Shown here: piece by piece, positions 3,384 to 52,092 of the stretch
Position numbering within the stretch: position 1 is the stretch's first letter
How the letters are laid out: each line of letters starts with the position of its first letter
Assembly (NCBI GenBank): GCA_051874695.1
Contig: JBJEGC010000015.1
Span: forward strand, 119,800 to 183,799
Direction: 5' to 3'
DNA length: 64,000 nucleotides
DNA from: Candidatus Bruticola sp.
GTDB lineage: Bacteria > Vulcanimicrobiota > Xenobia > Xenobiales > Xenobiaceae
Notes under the pieces: generated by a model
Databases searched by the model: none
The model's input: only the letters and a program-made list of their open reading frames with translations
What the model was told of the DNA's origin: nothing
Program-made: the position numbers and the translations under genes

Positions 3384-4589
3384 ATGGCTTTTAATAACCA
3401 GTACAGCAAAAAAACACTGCTCAGCTTGATTGCCTGCCTGATAATTTCAGTGTGGCTGCCCTTAACAGCTCAAGCTTCTAGCTATTCAGATCATGAGCTT
3501 GACCAAATTATGGCTCCCGTAGCTCTCTATCCTGACAGCTTATTGGGCAACGTTTTAGCTGCCTCAACTTATCCGGATCAATTAATAGAAGCAGACAGCT
3601 GGGCCTCTCAGCATCATTACAACAGTGCCTCCGACACCTTAAATAGCGTCGCCAATAAAACCTGGGATGACAGCGTTAAATCCCTTCTCTTAACACCTGA
3701 AGTAATTGCTATGATGGTCAACGATTTGACCTGGACAGACAAACTGGCGCAAGCTTTCACTACTCAGAAGAGTGAACTCTGCGATTCTGTTCAGAGATTG
3801 CGTCGTCAAGCAAAAAGCAACGGTGTTTTGGAAACAAACGATCAAGTTAAAGTAGTAGAACAGAATAACGTTATCTCTATTGGCTCGTCCCAAAGCGACA
3901 TTATCGCCGTACCTCAATATTCCACGCTTGTTTGTACGCAAACATTCGATCCGCTCGATACGTTCTTAAAAACGGCCTTAGTATGGGGAACTGTCCGCAC
4001 CTTGGATACCATATTTTTCGGAAGTTATTGGGATTGGCACTCTCACGACATTTACATTGGTCCAGGATACAATCATTTTTACTGGGATGGCGCTCCCAGA
4101 GCGTGGTATCCTCATCCTCCAGTTCCGCCGCCGCCTCACCACGATCCGCACCATCCGGCTCCCGCTCCATATGTTCCTAAAATGCATCCCAGCCACAATC
4201 CCCCGCCTCCTCATTATGTGAGCCAACAAAAAACATACCAAGATCGCCGTCCCGGCCAGTACTCACCTAACAAGCACCACAGTGAACCGGCTCACTCATC
4301 AGCTCCAAATCATCCGGCCACTAAAGGTAACCCCAATTACCACTCCCCTGCTCATATAGACCAAAGCATACACAGTCGTCAAACAACTCCCCAGCATCAA
4401 AATGAGCGTCCCAATTTTGATAAGAGCCATTCTGACCCCACTAGGGCAGAGCTCAAACATGAAGAAGCCAAGCAGCATCTGCAGCAAAATCAGCATGAAG
4501 AAGCTAAGCAGCACCTGCAGCAGAATCGGCGTCAAAGCAGCAGCCGGACAAAAGAACGCCGTACCCGATCTTCACGACTGAGAAAATAA
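3384..4589 (+). CDS. Secreted DUF3300-like paralog with a Pro/His-rich C-terminal tail
   Basis: Signal peptide. MAPVALYPDSLLGNVLAASTYPDQ is homologous to the first gene through roughly the first 250 aa (WDWH..IGPGYN conserved). The tail is Pro/His-rich with a duplicated HEEAKQHLQQN. Confidence 0.7.
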   Translation: MAFNNQYSKKTLLSLIACLIISVWLPLTAQASSYSDHELDQIMAPVALYPDSLLGNVLAASTYPDQLIEADSWASQHHYNSASDTLNSVANKTWDDSVKSLLLTPEVIAMMVNDLTWTDKLAQAFTTQKSELCDSVQRLRRQAKSNGVLETNDQVKVVEQNNVISIGSSQSDIIAVPQYSTLVCTQTFDPLDTFLKTALVWGTVRTLDTIFFGSYWDWHSHDIYIGPGYNHFYWDGAPRAWYPHPPVPPPPHHDPHHPAPAPYVPKMHPSHNPPPPHYVSQQKTYQDRRPGQYSPNKHHSEPAHSSAPNHPATKGNPNYHSPAHIDQSIHSRQTTPQHQNERPNFDKSHSDPTRAELKHEEAKQHLQQNQHEEAKQHLQQNRRQSSSRTKERRTRSSRLRK

Positions 4590-17439: not shown

Positions 17440-17514
17440 TGGTGGGTTGTACAGGACTCGAACCTGTGGCCACCTGATTAAAAGTCAGATGCTCTACCAC
17501 TGAGCTAACAACCC
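17440..17514 (-). tRNA. tRNA-Lys (anticodon UUU)
   Basis: Cloverleaf folds by hand. Acceptor gggttgt/acaaccc, anticodon loop cuUUUaa, T-arm ggttcgagtcc. CCA is encoded. Confidence 0.85.
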
Positions 17515-17548
17515 ATACTCACCATCAACCTTATACAGCTGTCAGAGC

Positions 17549-17626
17549 TGGGGTGGATAGTGGGATTCGAACCCACGACCTCCGGTTCCACAGACCGGCG
17601 CTCTAACCGACTGAGCTATATCCACC
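17549..17626 (-). tRNA. tRNA-His (anticodon GUG)
   Basis: Extra 5' G(-1) paired with C73. Anticodon loop cuGUGga. T-arm gggttcgaatccc. CCA is encoded. Confidence 0.85.
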
Positions 17627-17637
17627 ATATTTTCTCT

Positions 17638-17713
<76 letters not shown>

Positions 17714-17743
17714 ATATACCTTATGCTCTTTACCAGCGACACT

Positions 17744-17821
17744 TGGTCGGAGCGGCCGGATTTGAACCGGCGACCCCTTGCTCCCAAAGCAAGTGCGCTA
17801 TCCAGGCTGCGCTACGCTCCG
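17744..17821 (-). tRNA. tRNA-Pro (anticodon UGG)
   Basis: Acceptor cggagcg/cgctccg. Anticodon stem cttgc/gcaag with loop uuUGGga. T-arm ggttcaaatcc. CCA is encoded. Confidence 0.85.
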
Positions 17822-18215: not shown

Positions 18216-20090
18216 ATGTTCATTAAGAAAAACACGTATCTAAAGTTTGCCAGCGTTTCTCTTGTACTACTTTTATCAGGAGGAGTAGCTGTCACCTCAG
18301 CCGGATGCAGCGAAGGCGACGTCGTTCATAACCATTATGCGGCTACTTCCAACGGCGGATCAGCCTCAGATCCTTCAGATCCCTCCTCTCCTTCGGACCC
18401 TTCAAATCCTTCAGATCCGTCCTCTCCCACAGATCCCGGCCAGGTTTGGGGGCGCACGGTCTTTATCTCTATAGCTACCGACACTTTACCTGCAGAAGTA
18501 GTCAGCGCCCAGTATAGCTACAGCGACGCCGACGGCAATCAAATTAAAAAGTCCGATCCGGAAACTATCGATCGCGAAGGCTCCAATGTTTATACCGCCA
18601 CAGACGACAGCGTGCCCGAAGGGGCTGTAAAAATTACTATTGCTTATTACGACAAAGACGGTAATCTTTTGGCGGTTGATGAAAAAGACCTCGATTGGTA
18701 AAGTGGCGGCTCTGAAGGCAGCAGCAGCGAAGGAACAGCCAGCATAGAAAGCAGTGATCCCGCCACTATTTCTACCGATTCTACACTGGTACTTCAAGCT
18801 GACAAATACGTTTTAAAGCCTTCGGAAACGACTAAACTAACCTGCCTCTTGGTCAATGCAGATGGCACCAGCGTCGATGTAACTCCCTTTGCTGCCTTCG
18901 GCAATGTCTATAGCGACGTCTTAACCAGCAGTAACAGTGAAATTCACGGTCAGTATCAAGCGGTTGGCTACAACGGCAAACACGAAGGCGTAGCCGATAA
19001 AATTTCAGCCACTGCCTCGACCCCTTCAGGCAAGCAAACCGTTCTTATTGCTAGTCCAATATATGTCACGGAGCAAAAGGTAGACAGCATTAAGCTAGCC
19101 CCGGCTAATCTCGACGGCCTGGAGATAACAGTCAGCGACAACAACACGCCCAATAACCCCAACGACGACTACTCAACTTTGGTCTGTGTGCCAGAAGTAT
19201 TTAACGGCAAAACAGTACACCAGAGTTTCAACCGAAAAGCTGGTACTTTCAGCTTGCACGGATTGAATGCTGAGGTTGACGCCATAAACGAACAGCCCAT
19301 GCTCGCTTTAGCCTCGTTTACCAGCGAATCAGGAAAAGGCCCCTCCCCGACTGGAGTCGATGTAACAGATCAAACTACTTTTTCGGCCCAAAATACTACA
19401 ACTTACGCGATCTGGATAACCTTCGACGTTGAAACTGAGGGCAATATCATCCGTCCTAAAGCCATAGAGTCAAAACTGGCCAGCAATGTAGGATATTCAA
19501 ACGATATTCAAGTTACGGGCGTATATTCGAACGACGGCACCGAGCTTACCGCCTCTACTAAGGTGCGTGCCAAGCTAGGCTGGTCGCACACCTCTTTTGC
19601 ATTTAAACAGGATGATGGCACCTATCGACCGGTCAGCTACGAACTAAATCAGTATGTATATAAAACCAATAGCGATCCCCTCAACGCTGGCAACGATATA
19701 CTCTGTGGCGTCAAAACTAACCCTAAGCTGGTGGTCAGCCAAGAATTCTATCTAAAAGGAGTAATTTGCTACGGAGGTAAGACATTCTGCTGCGATATTC
19801 CCGAAGAGTTGCTGCCTGCTGATGGCTACCCAGGTGCATCTTCCGGAGGAGCAGGCATTAGCACAGTAACTCCCTCCCTTAGACAGACTGTTTCCAAGCA
19901 CAACAACTATCTCTTTGAGGTGACCTGGTACGGTTCTTCCAGTTATGATCATGCCTACCTGAAAATTAGAGAAGATAGCGTATGGACTGCGGCTTGCCTG
20001 CCTTCATTTGCCCCTGGTGAAGTCTATAACATCAACCGCAGCTACGGAAGTTATATCGCTTCAGGTATAATCGATATCGGCAGCAACTAA
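18216..20090 (+). pseudogene. Big_2-like lipoprotein gene (paralog 1) with one in-frame TAA at 18699-18701; otherwise a continuous 624-codon frame
   Basis: Lipoprotein signal ending TSAGC. ORFs 18216..18701 and 18849..20090 are in the same frame, separated only by the TAA. Sequence on both sides aligns colinearly to paralogs 2 and 3 (AYYDKDGN, ADKYVLKPSE, KGVICxxGKTFCCDIPEE). Downstream terminator at about 20110-20156. Confidence 0.7.
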
Positions 20091-20109
20091 CTTTTCAGCG
20101 CAAATAACA

Positions 20110-20156
20110 AAAAAAGCCCTCTTCAGTCTTACAGACAGAGTAGGGCTTTTTTTTGT
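20110..20156 (+). terminator. Intrinsic terminator after lipoprotein paralog 1
   Basis: gccctc...gagtagggc stem followed by tttttttt. Confidence 0.6.
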
Positions 20157-20603
20157 TACTTAACTAACCAGCCTGAAAATTTCTTACTTCCCCTCTACGG
20201 CATTACATATTACAAAAAGGCGATTAAATATTATACATACAACCCTCTTTTGTTGAAGCGCTTCCCTAGATAAAGATCCATAAAAACATAGCATCCACCA
20301 ATAACATCTTTATAGATACAATTATTCTACTAACATATACCGTATTTATCATATACAACATAATAAGTACAATTAAAAAAAACACATTAATTGATTAATA
20401 ACAATTTTATACACAATATTTCATCATATTTTACATAAAACATTAACTGAATAATTACACAAAAACATATACTGTTATATAGATAAGTAAGTTTAAAAAA
20501 CCTATATTTTCGGACATTTAAACGCTTTAAACCAGGACAAAATTTTTTTTAAGTAATATAAATAACCTCTTATTATTCCCCAGGGAGACAAAAAAACTTC
20601 ACC

Positions 20604-22451
20604 ATGAATCTTAACTCAAAAATGTGCTTAAACTTTACTCGTATTTCACTCATACTACTTTTAGTTGGAGGAGTTGCCTGCATGTCGTCCGGATGCGGTG
20701 ATGACGTAACGCACAATCACTACACAACCGGCAGCAGTGCCTCTACCGATACACCTGGCGGCGGTTCCAGATCTTCTACCGACGATCCGGGCAGCGGTTC
20801 TCAAGACCCCAGCCAAGTATGGGGACGCACCGTTTTCATATCTATTGCGACAGATACTCTACCTTCGGAAGCGGTTACTGCTCAATACACTTACAGTGAC
20901 AGCTAAGGCAACCCTATTAAACAGTCCGGACAAGAAACTATTGATCGCTCAGGAGCAACTAACTACACCATCACCGATGAGTCTGCGCCCAGCGAAGCGG
21001 TCAAGATGGTAATTGCTTACTACGATAAAAACGGTAACATTATAGCTATCGACGAACGGGACATTACTTGGGACGGCGAAGAAACCGGCAGTGTCCAAAG
21101 CAGCGATCCCAAAGAGCTCAGCCGCACGGCCAAGCTGGTACTTACAGCCGACAAATACGTTTTGAAGCCTTCAGAACAAACACAGCTGACCTGCATGTTG
21201 GTAAACGAAGACGGCAGCAGCGTTAACGTTACTAATTTCGCTGCTTTTAGCAACATTTACAGCGATGTCCTCAAGGGCTCCGGTGAAAGCACACGCGGAC
21301 TCTATGAAGCCGTTGGTCATAGCGGAACTCACGGCGGCGTAGCCGATAAAATTCAAGTTACCGCTTCTACCCCTGCCGGCGAGCAGACTGTGTCTTTGGA
21401 CAACCCCATTTATGTAACCGAACAGAGTATTAACGGCTTTTATTTAAAGCCCGGCGATATTGACGGACATAAAATTACTGTCAATGACAACTCTACCCCA
21501 AATAACCCCAACGACGACTACTCTGTGGTTCTTTATCTGCCCAATGAAGTCAAAGGCGAAGTTGTCAATCAAACTTTAAACCATAAATGGGGTACCTTCA
21601 CTAAATACGACGATTTAGTAGAAAATTATGCTATAAATGAACTGCCTATAACTGCTATAGCGACATTCGGCAGTGAAGAAGGCAAAGGTCCCTCTCCCAC
21701 AGGCCTCGATATCACTGACAAGGTGTCTTTCTCGGCTGAAGTTACTAAAGTTTGGTCTTCAGAATTACTTCCTACTGTTTCCATGAGAGACAAGGTCGTC
21801 TTACCCAGTTTTGACTATTCCACTGCCAAGTTCTTTAGCGGCATAAATTCAGCAAGTACTGTAACTGTCACCGGTACTTACAAAGAAGGAAGTCTTGACA
21901 CTTCATCAAGTTGTTTGGTTAAGATGGCGCCAAGTTGGACAAAAACAGCTTTTGCCGTAAAGAAAGAGGATGGAACTTACAGAGCTATCGGCTACGAACT
22001 CGGTGATCAAGTATACGATTCCTCAACTACCCCTGAAGCTGGTTACGCTACTGGAGCCAAAACTTATCCCAATACGACAGTCAAAAGAACCCTGTATTTA
22101 AAGGGAGTAATATGCGCTCTGGGTAAAACTTTCTGCTGCGATATTCCGGAAGAAATACTCCCCAACGGCAAATATCCCAGTGCTTCCTCAGCTTCTTACG
22201 GAGGTAATGTCACGGAAACTATCAGCCAAGTAGAATCCGGCAAAAATGAATACCTTCTCACAATAACCTGGCAAACTACTGGCACCGATGTCAATTTCTC
22301 CGCCGACCGTGTAAAGTTGTCTTTGAATGTAGACAGCACCTATACCGATGCTTGCTTGCCTTCATTCTCCTTGGCCGAGTTCTTCTACAAAACATATATC
22401 TACGGCAGTTATTCTACTGCTGGTGAGTACTTCATGGATAACGACGAATAA
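20604..22451 (+). pseudogene. Big_2-like lipoprotein gene (paralog 2) with one in-frame TAA at 20904-20906; otherwise a continuous 615-codon frame
   Basis: Lipoprotein signal MSSGC. ORFs 20604..20906 and 21006..22451 share a frame. The TAA occupies the position of an Asp codon (GAC) in paralog 1 (YSDADGN vs YSDS*GN). Homology to paralog 1 is colinear through the C-terminal Cys-rich motif. Confidence 0.7.
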
Positions 22452-22500
22452 ATAGACAAAAATCTGCTACAGTTACACTGCAGGCAGACTGTTGATAACT

Positions 22501-22542
22501 AAAAAGCGGAGTACCGCGTTGGCAGTACCCCGCTTTTTAGTT
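22501..22542. terminator. Bidirectional terminator between paralog 2 and the convergent hypothetical gene
   Basis: aaaaaGCGGagtaccgcgttggcagtacCCCGCttttt. Confidence 0.6.
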
Positions 22543-26454: not shown

Positions 26455-28623
26455 CTATTCCTTAGCCGGGTACTCTTCCGCCTGGCCTGCACTGTCATCA
26501 ACCCCGTCCATTTTACCATCCGCAGCCTCAGTTTTTCCGGTATTAGACTTAACAATAGCAGAAAGAGCCCTTTCGGACATTTTTCCGTCGAAACACGCCC
26601 AGCAGAAAAGCAAGCCTCCCAATCCGACAAAACACAGAGTGCCCAGCAAATCGTAACCCGCTACCCCCAGGATAGCCGTAAGCATTTTTTCCAAACTGAT
26701 ACCAGTTAAAAAAGCAGAAGCAGTATAATTGACACTGCAGAGAGCGATAAACACACCAGACAAAGCACCACCGGCGACCAAACCAGTTGCAAATAAACTG
26801 CCGCTGCTCAGATCGTCATCGAAAGTTTTATTTTGGATGCTGTTGTATCTGTCAGCCAAACCGCGAACTACTCCACCGGCGAATATGGGCAGAGTAGTAG
26901 AAATGGGTAGATAAGCTCCCACAGCAAACGATAGAGAATTGACCCCGCAGAGCTCAAAAGTAAGGGCTAGAAATGCCCCTACCAGAACGAACTGCCAATC
27001 AAGATTAAAAGAGAGCAAACCGCGAATAAGCGTAGCCATAAGCGTGCCCTGAGGAGTCGGATATTGAGCTGTACCAATAGCGTGTACAATACCCTTAGCC
27101 TGCATTGCCAAAGTAGGAGCATCCAACACATGTATGGTCCACCCCACGGCAAAAGAAGAAACAATCGCTCCAATAAAAAGGGCTATTTGCTGATACTTGG
27201 GGGTAGCCCCTACTAAATACCCCGTCTTAAGGTCCTGACTGGTCGCTCCGGAAGTAGCTGCGGCGATGCACACTATGCTACCTACTACCAAAGCTAAAGG
27301 TTCATAAAAACGTCCGGTCCACCCCAAAGCAATGAATATAAGGCAAGTTCCCATTATGGTAGCTATGGTCATACCGGATATAGGGCTTGAGCTGCTGCCA
27401 ATTAACCCGACAATGCGACTAGAAACGGTCACAAAGAAGAAACCAAAAACTACAATTAAAACAGCTAAAACAAGTTTTCCCCACAGAGTATGAGCCGGTA
27501 AAATGGGCAAAAAGGCAAGTACCGCTACCAAAACAGCACAGCCGATCAACACTGTTACCATCGAAAGATCGCGCTCTGTACGCACCTTTTGCGCCGCGGC
27601 TTCTTTGTTTTGCAGCGATTTAAAACTGGACAAAAAAGAAGAAACAATAGTGGGAAAAGTTTTTAAAAGAGTTAAAAAACCTCCGCAAGCCACGGCTCCA
27701 GCGCCTATTTGACGCACGTAAGCGCGGTAAATAGCTCCAGGCACATCGGTAAAAGTATGAGTAATGGGATTCCAGCCGCAAGGTCCTCCCGCAGTCATCA
27801 GGTCTGGCATTTCTCCCAAATTAACCAGCTGCTGAGCCACCACCTCCGTAGGCAGCAAAGTAGCCAGTAAAGGTATAAGGGCTAACCAAGAAAGCACACC
27901 TCCGGCAACCATTACCCCGGCCAACTGCGGACCAACGATATAACCTATACCCAAATATTCAGGAGTAATCTCTCCTCCTACGTAGGCCGACGGCCAAAAC
28001 TTATTTTTTAGCGAGGTAACTACGCAAGGGGTCTGGGCTATAAAGCGGATCCCTTTCTGCAGAAAAGCGTAAACAAAAGCTGCCGCCACTCCCCAATAGG
28101 CATTTTTAGCAAATTCTCCGCCTTGATCACCGGCAATTAGCACCTGCGCACAGGCTGTGCCCTCAGGATAGGGCAGGTTATCATGTTCATGAACTATTAA
28201 ATTAGGACGCAACGGCACCATCATAAGAGTGCCCAGTAGGCCACCGCACAGAGCCAAAATAAAAATTACCCAGTAGTGGAAAAACGAAGGCCCATCCGAA
28301 CCAGCGCTTAGGAATAGAAAACCGGGCATGGTGAAAATTACTCCCGAAGCAATAGATTCACTGGCCGAACCAGCCGTTTGAATAATGTTATTTTCTAAAA
28401 TAGTTGTTTGAAATAGACGACGACCGCAAGATATGGCCAGTACAGCAATAGGAATGGAAGCCGAGACGGTCATTCCGGCCTTTAAGGCCAAGTACACTGA
28501 AGCTGCACCGAAAAGGGCACCGAAAACAACTCCCAAAATTATGGCTCTGAGAGTAAATTCGCGCATTTCTTGTTGCGGCGGCACATAAGGAGTAAATTCT
28601 GTTTTATTAATTCCGGAAGTCAC
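26455..28623 (-). CDS. OPT-family oligopeptide transporter
   Basis: 722 aa polytopic membrane protein. N-terminal FTLRAIILGVVFGALFGAASVYLALKAGMTVSASIPIAVLA and overall length and topology are typical of the OPT family. Confidence 0.7.
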   Translation of the reverse strand: MTSGINKTEFTPYVPPQQEMREFTLRAIILGVVFGALFGAASVYLALKAGMTVSASIPIAVLAISCGRRLFQTTILENNIIQTAGSASESIASGVIFTMPGFLFLSAGSDGPSFFHYWVIFILALCGGLLGTLMMVPLRPNLIVHEHDNLPYPEGTACAQVLIAGDQGGEFAKNAYWGVAAAFVYAFLQKGIRFIAQTPCVVTSLKNKFWPSAYVGGEITPEYLGIGYIVGPQLAGVMVAGGVLSWLALIPLLATLLPTEVVAQQLVNLGEMPDLMTAGGPCGWNPITHTFTDVPGAIYRAYVRQIGAGAVACGGFLTLLKTFPTIVSSFLSSFKSLQNKEAAAQKVRTERDLSMVTVLIGCAVLVAVLAFLPILPAHTLWGKLVLAVLIVVFGFFFVTVSSRIVGLIGSSSSPISGMTIATIMGTCLIFIALGWTGRFYEPLALVVGSIVCIAAATSGATSQDLKTGYLVGATPKYQQIALFIGAIVSSFAVGWTIHVLDAPTLAMQAKGIVHAIGTAQYPTPQGTLMATLIRGLLSFNLDWQFVLVGAFLALTFELCGVNSLSFAVGAYLPISTTLPIFAGGVVRGLADRYNSIQNKTFDDDLSSGSLFATGLVAGGALSGVFIALCSVNYTASAFLTGISLEKMLTAILGVAGYDLLGTLCFVGLGGLLFCWACFDGKMSERALSAIVKSNTGKTEAADGKMDGVDDSAGQAEEYPAKE

Positions 28624-34268: not shown

Positions 34269-34709
34269 ATGACCTACGTAGTCCGCAGTATCGTTGCCAA
34301 AGGCGACCCCAGGGCCGCTTATGAACTCACCAAAGACATGGAAAGCTTTCCCAAGTTTATGCCCGATGTTCAAAGTGTAGAGGTCGTTAAACGCGGCGAG
34401 AACATGACCGTCACCGATTGGAGCACGGAAGTTGACGGTACCGAACTTATCTGGACAGAAGAAGATCACTTCGATGACGAAAACTTAATCGTAACTTACA
34501 AACTTATTGAAGGCGATTTGGATAAATTTGAAGGCCAATGGGTGTTCGAGCCCTGTGAAGAAGGCTGCAAAATTACTCTTTCTGTCGATTTTGATTTCGG
34601 CATTCCTGAGCTTATCCACCTTATAGGTGGTGTTCTGGAAATAAAAGTGACTGAAAATTCAGACATGATGCTCAACAGCTTAAAATCCCGCATTGAAGGA
34701 CAGGCTTAA
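34269..34709 (+). CDS. SRPBCC (START/Bet v1/polyketide-cyclase-like) small protein
   Basis: 146 aa, beta-rich, with the pattern of the SRPBCC superfamily. Stop is 4 nt before the next start. Confidence 0.55.
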   Translation: MTYVVRSIVAKGDPRAAYELTKDMESFPKFMPDVQSVEVVKRGENMTVTDWSTEVDGTELIWTEEDHFDDENLIVTYKLIEGDLDKFEGQWVFEPCEEGCKITLSVDFDFGIPELIHLIGGVLEIKVTENSDMMLNSLKSRIEGQA

Positions 34710-34712
34710 TCA

Positions 34713-35822
34713 GTGAACCGTTTCGGCTTCTTAATCCATCCTCTGGGAATGCGCGATATTATCCGTCACCTTCCAAACGTGGCCGGTAAGCGTGAGCCTC
34801 TGGTAAAGAAAGTACTGGAGTGGACTCCTTCTTACCACGCTTCTCATATTACCGGCGTAACTTCGGCTTTTGACGGCAGAGAAATCGAAGGCGATTTTTA
34901 CACTGTTCCCCTTTTTCCCCAGCAAATTACCGGCCTAGATCGCCAGTTTGTACTCGAACGCATTATCAGTGCGTGTAAACTGGCCGAAGCTGATGGTGCC
35001 CAAATAGTCGGTCTCGGAGGCTATACTTCCGTAGTAGGCTCAGCTGGCATGACCGTAGCGAAAGAGATAGACATTGCCGTTACTAGCGGCAACAGTTACA
35101 CCGTAGCCACTGCTGTTGAAGGAGCGACATCTGCTTGTGAGCTTTTGGGTTTAGATCCTGCCCAAGCAGTGGTAGCCGTTGTAGGAGCTACCGGGTCTAT
35201 AGGTAGTGTTTGCTCCAAGATATTGGCCAAACGTGGTGTTGGCACACTTATCCTGCTAGGCCGCTCTGAACAGCGTTTGGCCAATATCGCAGAAGAAATA
35301 AGCGCTCTGTATCCTCACACCAATATAGAAATATCTATAGATATGGGAACTAATATCAGGCGCTCCGACCTAGTGGTAAGTTGCACTTCTTCCGGAGGCG
35401 ACATTTTACAGCCCGCTATTTTCAAGTCTGGTTCGGTAATTTGCGACGTAGCCGTACCTCACGACGTCTGCCGTGAAGTGGCTCAGCTGCGTCCCGATGT
35501 CTTGGTCATTGAAGGAGGCGTCTGCGTAGCCCCCGGCCTAAATCCCAAATTCAATTTTGACTTCGGCTTCCCCGAAGGCATATGCTTAGCCTGTATGGCC
35601 GAAACTATGATTCTCACCATGGAAGGACGCTTCGAAGACTTTTCTATCGGTCGAGGTTTACAAATCGAAAAAGTGGAAGAAATAAGTCGTTTAGCCAAGA
35701 AACACGGTTTTAAGCTGGCCGGATTCCGCGCTTTCGATGAGCCAATTACAGCCGAACGCATCGAACAGGTCAAAACCTTGTCTAAGGAATACTATAAGGA
35801 TCAACACACATTCCAATTATGA
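34713..35822 (+). CDS. NAD(P)-binding Rossmann-fold oxidoreductase with an N-terminal substrate domain (shikimate/quinate-dehydrogenase-like fold)
   Basis: VVAVVGATGSIGSVCSKILAKRG dinucleotide-binding motif at about residue 150, after an N-terminal 150-aa domain. Overlaps the next gene by 4 bp. Confidence 0.5.
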   Translation: MNRFGFLIHPLGMRDIIRHLPNVAGKREPLVKKVLEWTPSYHASHITGVTSAFDGREIEGDFYTVPLFPQQITGLDRQFVLERIISACKLAEADGAQIVGLGGYTSVVGSAGMTVAKEIDIAVTSGNSYTVATAVEGATSACELLGLDPAQAVVAVVGATGSIGSVCSKILAKRGVGTLILLGRSEQRLANIAEEISALYPHTNIEISIDMGTNIRRSDLVVSCTSSGGDILQPAIFKSGSVICDVAVPHDVCREVAQLRPDVLVIEGGVCVAPGLNPKFNFDFGFPEGICLACMAETMILTMEGRFEDFSIGRGLQIEKVEEISRLAKKHGFKLAGFRAFDEPITAERIEQVKTLSKEYYKDQHTFQL

Positions 35823-49494: not shown

Positions 49495-50655
49495 TTATTT
49501 GCCTTTCTCAACTTTTGGAGCCGCTTCGGAATCTGAAGAAGCTGAAGCCCCCGATTTCATAATTTCTAATGCGTATAAAGTGAGGAGACTATGGTAATCG
49601 ACACGCAAGCGATCTACATTTTGTTCCATCCAAGCCAGTTGCCTGTCATTAAGCAGTTCCCCGATATCTTTGCGTATTGTATTCTCTCGCTTTTTGTCCA
49701 GATCAGCCAATTCACGCAACAAAGGAGCGACTGCCGCCCTCTGCCCTGCACTCATTTTCAGAGTTTCTACATCTTCCATCTTGACAATCATACTGGCTAT
49801 ATCTTGAATCTGGAAATCGACAAACTTGTGAGAATAAGTTTCACGCGCTTTGAGTAAACCGGCTCCACGAGCAAGAACTTCCAGAGCCTTAGCTACTACA
49901 GGCTGATAGCCGGATTTTTCTCCGGACTTATAACCGATTAAATTGGGTTCTCCGCGGTGAGAACGGGCCCATTTAATCTGTTCGTCTGTAAAATAACTCA
50001 TCAATTCGTTAATCAGTCGATTAGTTTTATCAATATCCTGTTCTAATCCGCTTAAAATTTTAGTACCTTCGCTAATTTGGGCCTTACTTAAACGCAACTC
50101 CGGATCAGGACAACGGTAAAAGTAAATAAAACCCGAAAGTACCTGAGTACCATATGCCTGGGCCCTCTTAACAGGAAGGGGCTTCGGATTGTCCTGCTTG
50201 GGATATACTGGCGTAATCTCTTTAGTATCAGAAGGGCCTATTGATTGGCTTCCGGGCACCACGGCCGGAGGAGACGGTACCCCGACCGGAGGTTTTAACT
50301 GAAGAGAACTATTACTTACCTGTTCTGAAGGAGGCGGCGGAGCATCGGCAACAATAACCGGCTCAGGTTGGTTGGGAACGCCGCTCTGCAGTAGACCTGG
50401 ACCTCTGCTGCTTTCCCCTTTACCCAAGTTATCTAGAGCACCGCTGTAAATAACCAGGTTGAAAGCGACTAACAAGACTACAAATACTATACCTGCAATG
50501 TTGGCAGGGGTCCAAAAGGTACTATTCTCAGTATCGCTCTCTTCGGAAGAGCCTTCCTTGACCTCGGTTTCCAACTTTTCTTTGTGCTCGACAGACTCAG
50601 ACTGCTCTTCTCTATGCCGTTCAGAAGACAGATTATTTTCACTCTGCATTTCCAT
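49495..50655 (-). CDS. Membrane-anchored hypothetical protein with a Pro-rich linker
   Basis: N-terminal acidic segment, one TM (IAGIVFVVLLVAFNLVIY), Pro-rich region, alpha-helical C-terminal domain. Confidence 0.45.
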   Translation of the reverse strand: MEMQSENNLSSERHREEQSESVEHKEKLETEVKEGSSEESDTENSTFWTPANIAGIVFVVLLVAFNLVIYSGALDNLGKGESSRGPGLLQSGVPNQPEPVIVADAPPPPSEQVSNSSLQLKPPVGVPSPPAVVPGSQSIGPSDTKEITPVYPKQDNPKPLPVKRAQAYGTQVLSGFIYFYRCPDPELRLSKAQISEGTKILSGLEQDIDKTNRLINELMSYFTDEQIKWARSHRGEPNLIGYKSGEKSGYQPVVAKALEVLARGAGLLKARETYSHKFVDFQIQDIASMIVKMEDVETLKMSAGQRAAVAPLLRELADLDKKRENTIRKDIGELLNDRQLAWMEQNVDRLRVDYHSLLTLYALEIMKSGASASSDSEAAPKVEKGK

Positions 50656-50658
50656 GTT

Positions 50659-52092
50659 TTAATCCTCTCTTGTAGTCGGAGCAGACAACTTAGACTGTTC
50701 TCGGCGGACACCCAGAAAAGTAGTGAATTCCAGAATCAGGGCCTCTCCTCCCCTCTCAAAGCCTAAACGCGATTTTGGATTGGTTAAGTCGTCTTCTATA
50801 GCTTTTATCTGCTCATCACTAAGCAGATTAATTAATTCAGCCTGTACCTCAGGATACCGTTCATAAGTTTCATGCTTATTAATGCTACTTATACAAGCGA
50901 TAATTTCAGCCTCAAGCCTACCGACAATTTCTACCTGTTCATCAGTAAGGCGCACTTTCTCGTTAGGCTCTAAAACGCGCATAATACCCAAGATAGCCTG
51001 ACGAAGCGGAATTTCTGCTCCTCCAGATACAGGAACTGTTATTGAAGCTTCATCGGTAACATGAGCAGGCGTGCTCAATAAACTAGTTAAATCTAATTCA
51101 AAGCCGGCATCGCTAATATGATAAGCTAACAGAGAGTCAAAACTGCGCATAACACTGTGACTGTTCAGCTTTAAAGACAAGACTGAATGCTCCCACAATA
51201 ATTCGAGCAAACGTTCCTGTTGTTTATCTGTCAACACTGAACGAACTTGCGCCTCCAAAATGGGGAAATAGGTAGAGCTGACCTTGGCAAAGTCTATAGC
51301 CAGTGTAGATCGGAGTGGTTCTTCCATAGCCCTTAAAAGAATTGCCTGTTTCCTATTGATGGCACATTCAGGATCGCTTTCCAGCAAAATCACTCCAACC
51401 AGCCAATGCAGCATACGAAGCTGACTAACTCTTTCACGCATTGGTGAAAGCCCGTAGTTGGTAAAATCGTTGCGCATACCGGCGTCTTGACAAAGATCGA
51501 CATAAAACTCAGTCAAAAACCTGGTCAGCTGCTCATCAGAATTAGCCAAACGATTATTTACATAAAGTTTATAAATAGCGGCCTGCTGATTGGGACGAAG
51601 CAGAGACCAAAGATAATTTTTCAAACAATCAGGCATAGACTTGCCCAGAGCAAAAGCGGAATTCGCAGATTTTGATTCAGCCGAACTCGCTGAGCTTGTA
51701 CGACTGGTACCTATTTGACCGCTCTCAACAAGCTGACGCGCCAAAGGTAGAACCGTAGCTATTTTAGCAGCCTGTTCGGCGTCACAGAGTAAGTCCGGAT
51801 CTCCGCTTAAAGAGTACATACCCTCTAAAACTTGCGGAAGAGTTAGTTTCCAAGTTATCTCCGAAGCATAATCGTTGCTCTGCTTAGGCAGCACAGAAAC
51901 AGCATTAAGCGGGGACGCGACATGGCTGACAAAAATCCATAAAAGCAAAGACACCGCAGCTAAAGACGCAAACAAAAATGCGGCGGCCAACTGCCATAGA
52001 AACAATTTCTTTTCAGAGCGAGTCTTTAATTTTTCATTGTTAAATCCAGTATCTTCCATTTGTCCGCTCCGCAGTCTCTTCTGACTGCACAT
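50659..52092 (-). CDS. Membrane-anchored hypothetical protein; distantly similar C-terminal module to the 49495..50655 product
   Basis: Single N-terminal TM. Shared LSDEQIKAI / FTDEQIKWA module. Confidence 0.45.
   Translation of the reverse strand: MCSQKRLRSGQMEDTGFNNEKLKTRSEKKLFLWQLAAAFLFASLAAVSLLLWIFVSHVASPLNAVSVLPKQSNDYASEITWKLTLPQVLEGMYSLSGDPDLLCDAEQAAKIATVLPLARQLVESGQIGTSRTSSASSAESKSANSAFALGKSMPDCLKNYLWSLLRPNQQAAIYKLYVNNRLANSDEQLTRFLTEFYVDLCQDAGMRNDFTNYGLSPMRERVSQLRMLHWLVGVILLESDPECAINRKQAILLRAMEEPLRSTLAIDFAKVSSTYFPILEAQVRSVLTDKQQERLLELLWEHSVLSLKLNSHSVMRSFDSLLAYHISDAGFELDLTSLLSTPAHVTDEASITVPVSGGAEIPLRQAILGIMRVLEPNEKVRLTDEQVEIVGRLEAEIIACISSINKHETYERYPEVQAELINLLSDEQIKAIEDDLTNPKSRLGFERGGEALILEFTTFLGVRREQSKLSAPTTRED

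Follow-up and report, generated by a model that had tools for sequence, protein, structure and literature searches.

Recurrent loss of a surface protein under within-host selection, a form of antagonistic pleiotropy, has been described for FadL/OmpP1 of non-typeable Haemophilus influenzae (PMC6156194). In this case, as in the loss of phage receptors, the disruptions are multiple, independent and of several types across lineages and hosts, intact alleles are conserved, and the lesions are irreversible and unprogrammed. Here we describe a locus that resembles these cases in all of those respects: two adjacent lipoprotein genes, hereafter paralog 1 and paralog 2, each broken by one in-frame TAA, in a 64 kb stretch (the window) of contig JBJEGC010000015.1 from Candidatus Bruticola sp. 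The locus differs from FadL/OmpP1 in that its host belongs to the uncultured gut Xenobia, that two tandem paralogs are hit at once, and that it is known from sequence alone. We conclude, with a probability of about 0.75, that both TAA codons are ordinary, recent and irreversible loss-of-function nonsense mutations in a conditionally dispensable, lineage-restricted surface lipoprotein.

Two further kinds of described systems bear a likeness to this locus. The contingency loci of Neisseria, Haemophilus and Mycoplasma also make a host-associated bacterium heterogeneous in the on/off state of a surface lipoprotein. By contrast, the Bruticola genes have no hypermutable repeat near their stops and carry base substitutions, which are not readily reversible. 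Programmed stop-codon read-through shares with our locus a single in-frame stop followed by an open and conserved frame. Here, however, the stop is unconserved, lies in no stimulatory context or structure, and UAA is the main terminator.

Results

Two adjacent lipoprotein paralogs are each interrupted by a single TAA

Translation of paralog 2 yields one frame of 616 codons that contains a sole internal TAA (QYTYSDS*GNPIKQS) and closes at a terminal TAA, just as the earlier note had read it (Table 1). Paralog 1 is the upstream neighbour, shares ~50% amino-acid identity with paralog 2, and likewise has a sole internal TAA (EKDLDW*SGGSEG), which sits in the inter-domain linker at the boundary of domain 1 and domain 2. 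Both genes are preceded by a GGAG-type ribosome-binding site. Beyond its premature stop, the frame of paralog 2 stays open and conserved throughout, and no further signal peptide is encoded there. The 481-aa and 413-aa open reading frames (ORFs) downstream of the two stops are exact matches to the hypothetical proteins ACI38Q_04960 and ACI38Q_04950 of a 'Candidatus Bruticola sp.' metagenome-assembled genome (MAG), an uncultured gut bacterium of the class Xenobia in the Vulcanimicrobiota.

Both stops, one in each of the adjacent paralogs, are also present in the Logan assembly of SRR30616792 (L001), which was built separately and matches the window at 99.986% identity across 14.8 kb. The MAG itself was very probably built from SRR30616792. 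Because L001 probably derives from the MAG's own sample, it excludes an assembler artefact and provides no independent population sample. A sequencing or assembly error, or a chimeric consensus of several strains, might still be suspected in a window taken from a MAG, particularly as the two agreeing assemblies probably share reads. We regard the chance of such an artefact as close to negligible. The two assemblers gave identical letters across both genes, with only two differences in the 14.8 kb, both elsewhere; the lesions are stop-creating substitutions, not the indels typical of assembly errors; and lesions of the same kind occur in many independent samples of related species.

To place the two interruptions in context, we scanned all six frames of the window for single stops with at least 90 open codons on each side. 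The scan returned seven cases, among which paralogs 1 and 2 are the only true interrupted genes. As for the others, translation of 34269..34709 and 34713..35822 shows two separate adjacent genes; 49495..50655 and 50659..52092 are adjacent ORFs in the same frame, called separate genes on the evidence of the ORF table only; a further case is a frame on the opposite strand; and in the last two a short open stretch comes after a gene. Thus, both lipoprotein paralogs (2/2) are interrupted versus none of the other window genes (0/42; Fisher p = 0.001), which singles out the lipoprotein family.

The codon itself is not unusual. TAA terminates 25 of the 42 window genes, efp and RapA among them, as well as both paralogs, and this use as a terminator rules out a reassignment of the stop codon, in agreement with the earlier note. 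The products have the expected lengths when compared with the sister species: 185 versus 185 aa for efp and 936 versus 937 aa for RapA. The 266-aa gene adjacent to the paralogs, whose stop is TGA, also keeps its length (266 versus 266 aa). That both premature stops are TAA had been taken as remarkable; it carries little weight, as TAA accounts for 43-49% of the possible single-base nonsense mutations in the two paralogs. This share would rise further because mutation in bacteria is usually biased from GC to AT.

Table 1. Features of the lipoprotein locus in the window, and disruptive alleles found in related species. Domain limits of the paralogs are taken from the AlphaFold2 (AF2) model of the sister ortholog; alleles (a) to (g) are numbered on the 637-aa gene L004:8001-9914 (1914 nt).
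Feature	Position or contig	Strand	Description
Paralog 1, whole frame	18216..20090	+	sole internal stop at 18699-18701
Paralog 1, 5' part	18216..18701	+	161 aa: signal peptide with lipobox SAGC, SDP/SSP repeat linker, complete domain 1
Tandem 9-nt repeats in paralog 1 linker	18366..18436	+	repeat family D2; frame-keeping
Paralog 1, rest of frame	18702..20090	+	open up to the natural TAA; first in-frame start is TTG at 18849
Intrinsic terminator 3' of paralog 1	20109..20153	+	inverted repeat I3 (hairpin and T-run) and consensus terminator scan
Paralog 2, whole frame	20604..22451	+	616 codons
Paralog 2, 5' part	20604..20906	+	signal peptide with lipobox-like SSGC, Ser/Gly/Asp-rich linker, first two strands of beta-sandwich domain 1; closes at premature TAA
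Paralog 2, premature TAA	20904..20906	+	homologous codon GCA (Ala) in sister, GAA (Glu) in other species, GAC in paralog 1
Paralog 2, rest of frame	20907..22451	+	rest of domain 1, Ig-like domain 2, Cys-rich C-terminal region with FCCDIPEE motif; first in-frame start is ATG at 21006
Hairpin and T-run 3' of paralog 2	22497..22542	+	inverted repeat I2; read as an intrinsic terminator common with the convergent gene
Extra ~2.4 kb relative to sister	18420..20804	+	paralog 1 body, intergenic spacer, paralog 2 5' end
tRNA cluster Lys-UUU, His-GUG, Arg-UCU, Pro-UGG	17440..17821	-	directly upstream of paralog 1; no suppressor
Allele (a), C367T, CAA to TAA at Gln123	L007, L009-L013		otherwise identical to the intact allele over 1914 nt; product on 18 contigs
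Allele (b), deletion of A376, codon 125/126	L008, L029		1-nt frameshift outside any run
Allele (c), TAA for Tyr of DGKYVKI, codon 87	L030		a further species
Allele (d), IS30-like element (HTH_38 and rve) after nt 459	three samples		12-bp target duplication GCTGTCAAAGTT
Allele (e), 1333-bp out-of-frame deletion, nt 60-1392	12 contigs		several sequencing series
Allele (f), start codon ATG to ACG	L033, L034
Allele (g), 3' deletion	L035		last ~20 codons lost

Intact orthologs suggest the ancestral codon and a recent origin of the stops

The sister Bruticola species (GCA_051874735.1) carries one uninterrupted 611-aa gene (L002:10001-11836) in synteny, flanked by the tRNA cluster on one side and the RapA-like helicase gene on the other. 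Intact genes of 635-637 aa are found in at least four other species. In other species the lipoprotein gene is single-copy and lies between clpB and the thymidine kinase gene.

These orthologs change the picture of the two stop sites, which the earlier note had placed at Asp positions. At the paralog 2 site, Asp is found in paralog 1 only, and the other members compared have Ala or Glu: GAA is present at the DNA level in four other species, and Glu in six of six outgroup proteins. The TAA of paralog 1 opens an 8-codon insertion in the inter-domain linker that is specific to this paralog. The alignment is ambiguous there, and the residue assigned to the site depends on gap placement. Most simply, the TAA of paralog 2 would derive from an ancestral GAA by one G-to-T change, and a two-step path from Asp to stop is therefore unnecessary.

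Comparison along the length of the genes also bears on the history of the pair. Codons 1 to ~80 of the sister gene match paralog 1 (per 30-codon window 74-87% of the nucleotides are identical, and within the first ~60 codons 81-87%), and from codon ~85 to its end it matches paralog 2 (~71-93% per 30-codon window, mostly >80%). Judged by this pattern, the sister gene is a chimera in which the 5' end of paralog 1 (codons 1-80) is fused to the body of paralog 2. The extra sequence of the window (Table 1) was either lost in the sister through a crossover between the paralogs in the conserved 'VWGRTVFISIATDTLP' segment, or gained in the lineage of the window.

The region downstream of the paralog 2 stop has evolved under constraint. 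Compared with the sister gene, it yields a dN of 0.095 and a dS of 0.53 (omega 0.18), far from the ratio of about 1 that the earlier note had set, together with a lack of polymorphism, as a sign of plain pseudogenes. In the 34 codons from the stop up to the next ATG, omega is 0.10. Private changes at sites that do not vary among the outgroups and paralog 1 number 11 for paralog 2 and 7 for the sister (p = 0.48); when the outgroups alone define the sites, the numbers are 17 and 18, with no rate acceleration in paralog 2. Of the 163 columns without any variation across the remaining members, paralog 2 retains 158, and intact members score the same. Of all possible single-base changes in paralog 2, 4.2% yield a stop. 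From this figure, the single stop and the lack of any indel, we infer that ~1% divergence or less has accumulated since paralog 2 was inactivated.

These rates refute the view that the paralogs are long-standing pseudogenes. The earlier note was thus right to doubt gradual decay, as omega is low and evolution has not accelerated, but what it took to be improbable is better explained by recent, ordinary knock-outs. The conservation of paralog 2 alone does not separate a very recent knock-out from a gene that is still translated.

The lipoprotein gene is disrupted independently in related species

We located disrupted loci through truncated cluster members on long contigs and then compared their DNA. 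Reaching the loci by way of truncated proteins biases the allele frequencies, but not the variety and independence of the lesions. Including paralogs 1 and 2, nine independent disruptive alleles emerged: four nonsense mutations and one each of a frameshift, an insertion sequence (IS) insertion, a 1333-bp deletion, a start-codon loss and a 3' deletion (Table 1). Among the related species the family has two further TAA alleles, at Gln123 and at codon 87, and neither of the window's stops recurs in orthologs.

Disrupted and intact alleles co-occur in the same sample collections. In this sense the on/off variation that had been suggested for the two paralogs does exist in nature. One of the three samples with the IS30-like insertion is a Hadza-derived MAG that serves as a GTDB species representative.

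By contrast with the lipoprotein gene, its neighbours are intact on the same contigs: ClpB in 9/9 complete copies, N_methyl in 21/21, TK (thymidine kinase) in 22/23 and DHFR in 14/15. The single exceptions for TK and DHFR differ in length and come from the most divergent species. Independent alleles of several types, purifying selection on the intact alleles and intact neighbours are together the marks of a recurrently inactivated surface protein, and all of them are found here.

Two candidates dissolved upon close examination. G361T in L029 appeared to place a TAA at the codon hit in paralog 2; the codons show GGC to TGC (Gly121Cys) and no stop. The truncated proteins P0031 and P0034 appeared to be contig-end artefacts; they are the far side of the IS30-like insertion, the near side of which lies on L026-L028.

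We also noticed several features around these alleles. The IS30-like transposase occupies L026:4569-5612, and the contig continues beyond it into unrelated genes (BipA and a restriction-system S subunit), which suggests that the element is multicopy in that genome. In one species, four tandem 12-nt units (GTTTAAGCGCTT) occupy -80 to -31 (L017:3921-3970) upstream of the lipoprotein start at 4001. About 50 nt of this GTTTAAGCGCTT array are missing from the ACG-start allele of L033, possibly reflecting copy-number variation in the promoter region. Elsewhere, an RsmD-like methyltransferase gene (PF03602; L006:9895-10401) is split into 81 + 72 aa, compared with 168 aa in L004.

The locus contains no recognisable switch or recoding signal

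The earlier note favoured deliberate on/off control of the lipoproteins by a mechanism other than repeat slippage, or else translational read-through. A deliberate, reversible switch finds no counterpart at the locus. There is no repeat tract at 18699 or 20904, and the lone tandem repeat consists of the in-frame 9-nt units of the paralog 1 linker, which keep the frame and therefore form no frameshifting contingency tract. No inverted repeats flank a promoter; the convincing ones comprise only the hairpins of the two terminators and a palindrome adjoining a tRNA. No recombinase occurs among the neighbours that could be assigned to a family or otherwise recognised (tRNAs, RapA-like helicase, OPT transporter, ABC transporter); the adjacent 266-aa ORF has no family match on record. 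Hence, the locus has neither the simple-sequence repeats nor the invertible promoter of known switches, and the IS insertion, the 1333-bp deletion, the frameshift and the start-codon loss in related species are irreversible.

Read-through, whether programmed or by suppression of UAA, would give some full-length lipoprotein from each paralog. It would account for frames that are perfectly open and conserved downstream, and the fact that all four nonsense alleles of the family are TAA fits it as well. We nevertheless consider it very improbable. A programmed stop is expected to be conserved; here, the stop of paralog 2 is shared with no ortholog, and that of paralog 1 lies in the insertion specific to this gene. 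Folding of the 100 nt that begin at either stop is no more stable than that of shuffled sequences (z = +1.59 and -0.48), an E-value scan against Rfam returned tRNAs and sub-threshold noise only, with no recoding element, and no suppressor tRNA (anticodon UUA) is present among the four tRNAs of the window. UAA is the least leaky stop codon in bacteria, and in the window it is the regular terminator. Finally, the sibling alleles with frameshifts, an IS insertion or deletions are beyond the rescue of read-through.

A different kind of reversibility could come from the pair itself. Because the stops are staggered, a chimera of the paralog 1 5' end and the paralog 2 3' end, joined between paralog 2 codon 101 and paralog 1 codon 162, would be intact, so that crossover or gene conversion between the stops could rebuild a functional gene, as in cassette antigenic variation. 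The composition of the sister gene, with its paralog 1-like start and paralog 2-like body, indicates that such an exchange has occurred in evolution. The sister's junction at codons 80-85, however, lies upstream of the paralog 2 stop and would not repair it. Moreover, the paralogs share just 60-70% nucleotide identity; their longest exact match, 23 nt at codons 313/300, is far downstream, and no exact match of at least 14 nt exists between the two stops. This is too little for efficient homologous recombination, and the paralogs therefore cannot readily repair each other. Cassette systems also rely on silent copies, whereas here there are two copies only, each with its own ribosome-binding site and terminator and neither a silent cassette. 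We therefore think it highly unlikely that recombination between the paralogs switches them on and off.

The family encodes a predicted lipid-anchored protein with several beta-sandwich domains

Lipoprotein signals of the Sec/SPII pathway consist of a basic n-region, a hydrophobic h-region and a lipobox, [LVI][ASTVI][GAS]-Cys. By inspection rather than by a dedicated predictor, the N-terminus of paralog 2, MNLNSKMCLNFTRISLILLLVGGVACMSSGC, contains K6, R13 and a hydrophobic core. Ahead of Cys31 stand Gly (-1) and Ser (-2), and Ser also occupies -3, where the lipobox calls for L, V or I. Every family member that has an N-terminus keeps the lipobox Cys in an (S/A)GC context. Short tandem repeats that keep the frame make up the linker behind the lipobox, with SDP/SSP units in paralog 1 and GDKDP units in other species, and the linker length differs among alleles (family members of 626-639 aa). 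The 161-aa ORF of paralog 1, which comprises the signal peptide, lipobox, linker and complete domain 1, could still yield a short lipoprotein.

The family is small. It forms 9 clusters among 5.8 billion proteins and 29 representatives at 50% identity among 1.84 billion proteins. Five loci are found among the GTDB species representatives and two, both intact, in JGI metagenomes. Pfam returned sub-threshold matches to MucBP and MJ0548_N only, NCBIfam and a profile search of the Protein Data Bank (PDB) gave no match for the lipoprotein, and a search of the literature on gut Xenobia found nothing relevant.

Overall confidence in the AF2 model of the sister ortholog is low (mean pLDDT 51), and only residues ~70-180 are modelled with confidence (10-residue blocks with pLDDT 73-88); pLDDT falls to 59 at residues 181-190 and is 75 at 191-210. 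It depicts a disordered signal and linker (residues 1-69), a beta-sandwich domain 1 (~71-150) and further beta-rich domains after it. The best Foldseek matches are generic strings of beta-sandwiches (S-layer SbsB, alpha-2-macroglobulins, complement C3) with TM-scores of at most 0.18 and rmsd above 19 Å. Thus, the model shares with the fold class of SbsB and the bacterial alpha-2-macroglobulins a series of beta-sandwich domains behind a disordered N-terminal linker, but given these scores and the lack of a sequence match the resemblance is architectural only. The family is probably a lipid-anchored surface protein with multiple Ig-like domains, and its signal and architecture suggest exposure at the cell surface.

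Transcription units and neighbouring genes

An intrinsic terminator follows paralog 1, and the two paralogs are therefore separate transcription units. The consensus terminator scan lists no + strand site at the hairpin 3' of paralog 2, which we read as a terminator from its inverted repeat and T-run (Table 1). The tRNA cluster upstream of paralog 1 has 92% identity with the sister species, compared with 74-82% for neighbouring protein-coding DNA.

The two differences between the window and L001 both fall in the OPT transporter gene (26455..28623, - strand): the sequences differ by A/G at 26656 and are offset by a 1-nt gap at 27241. In L001 this gap breaks the gene into parts of 271 + 469 aa; it may be a frameshift polymorphism within the sample or an assembly error.

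Discussion

The lesions described here point to a simple sequence of events. In paralog 2, the TAA would have replaced an ancestral GAA (Glu) through a single G-to-T change, at a site within a domain 1 beta-hairpin, and in paralog 1 a stop would have arisen in the linker after domain 1. Translation would end at each TAA; any products initiated at ATG 21006 or TTG 18849 would lack a signal peptide and fail to be exported, and the full-length protein would be missing from the cell surface. Rather than the codon, a property of the family would explain why both copies are hit: among wild gut populations of related species the gene is knocked out repeatedly and by mutations of every kind while its intact alleles remain under purifying selection. 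Loss of the protein may be advantageous, for example as an escape from a phage that uses it as receptor or from antibodies that target it, in which case both redundant copies would have to go. Alternatively, paralogs 1 and 2 may work together, such that the first loss frees the second. Plain loss of function is the simplest account of all nine alleles; read-through rescues no frameshift, IS element or deletion.

The same data could be produced by neutral loss after relaxed constraint. The protein might have become useless in the niche of this bacterium, or the paralogs might be paired in function, and the stops would then be the first hits of decay and confer no advantage. One lesion in each gene with no further decay fits a very recent release from constraint, just as it fits selected loss, and the sister species manages with one gene. 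We consider neutral loss unlikely, although it deserves some weight. At least nine independent disruptive alleles in at least five species-level lineages, some of them frequent (18 and 12 contigs), together with intact alleles that keep omega near 0.18 and intact neighbours, look like more than drift, bearing in mind that the loci were ascertained through truncated proteins.

Several observations do not sit easily with plain loss of function. All four nonsense alleles are TAA, for which the chance is ~0.05 at equal base-change rates and higher with a GC-to-AT bias. A stretch of seven codons in one domain 1 beta-hairpin (the equivalents of L004:8358-8378) holds three lesions that arose independently in two species-level lineages: the paralog 2 TAA at the equivalent of Glu120, the Gln123 TAA and the deletion of A376 at codon 125/126. 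Plain loss of function predicts no such clustering between Glu120 and codon 126. Read-through would predict equally well that no decay has occurred downstream of the stops. The species of the window is represented by one sample in the collections searched. An advantage of loss over mere tolerance, like the agent that might select for it, is a suggestion drawn from the pattern of alleles.

We treat the clustering in the hairpin as a lead rather than a result, as the events are few and their ascertainment biased; it may reflect a mutational hotspot or an effect of ascertainment. If the lesions are placed non-randomly, as the paralog 1 stop exactly at the border of domains 1 and 2 would also suggest, a local mutational hotspot could be responsible, or selection for truncated N-terminal products, such as the 161-aa, lipid-anchored, domain-1-only form of paralog 1, in a heritable switching by gene fission. 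Such placement strikes us as doubtful, and we give it little credence.

Taken as ordinary loss-of-function mutations, the in-frame TAA codons need no exotic account: neither recoding, nor an altered code, nor a new phase-variation device. For annotators, the locus is a caution that 'split' genes here are real alleles. To our knowledge, the phylum Vulcanimicrobiota has no cultured gut member. A small, uncharacterised lipoprotein family emerges as an unusually frequent target of knock-out in gut Xenobia, including in a genome that represents its species in GTDB, and the family is a candidate phage receptor or immune target for studies of gut microbiome evolution.

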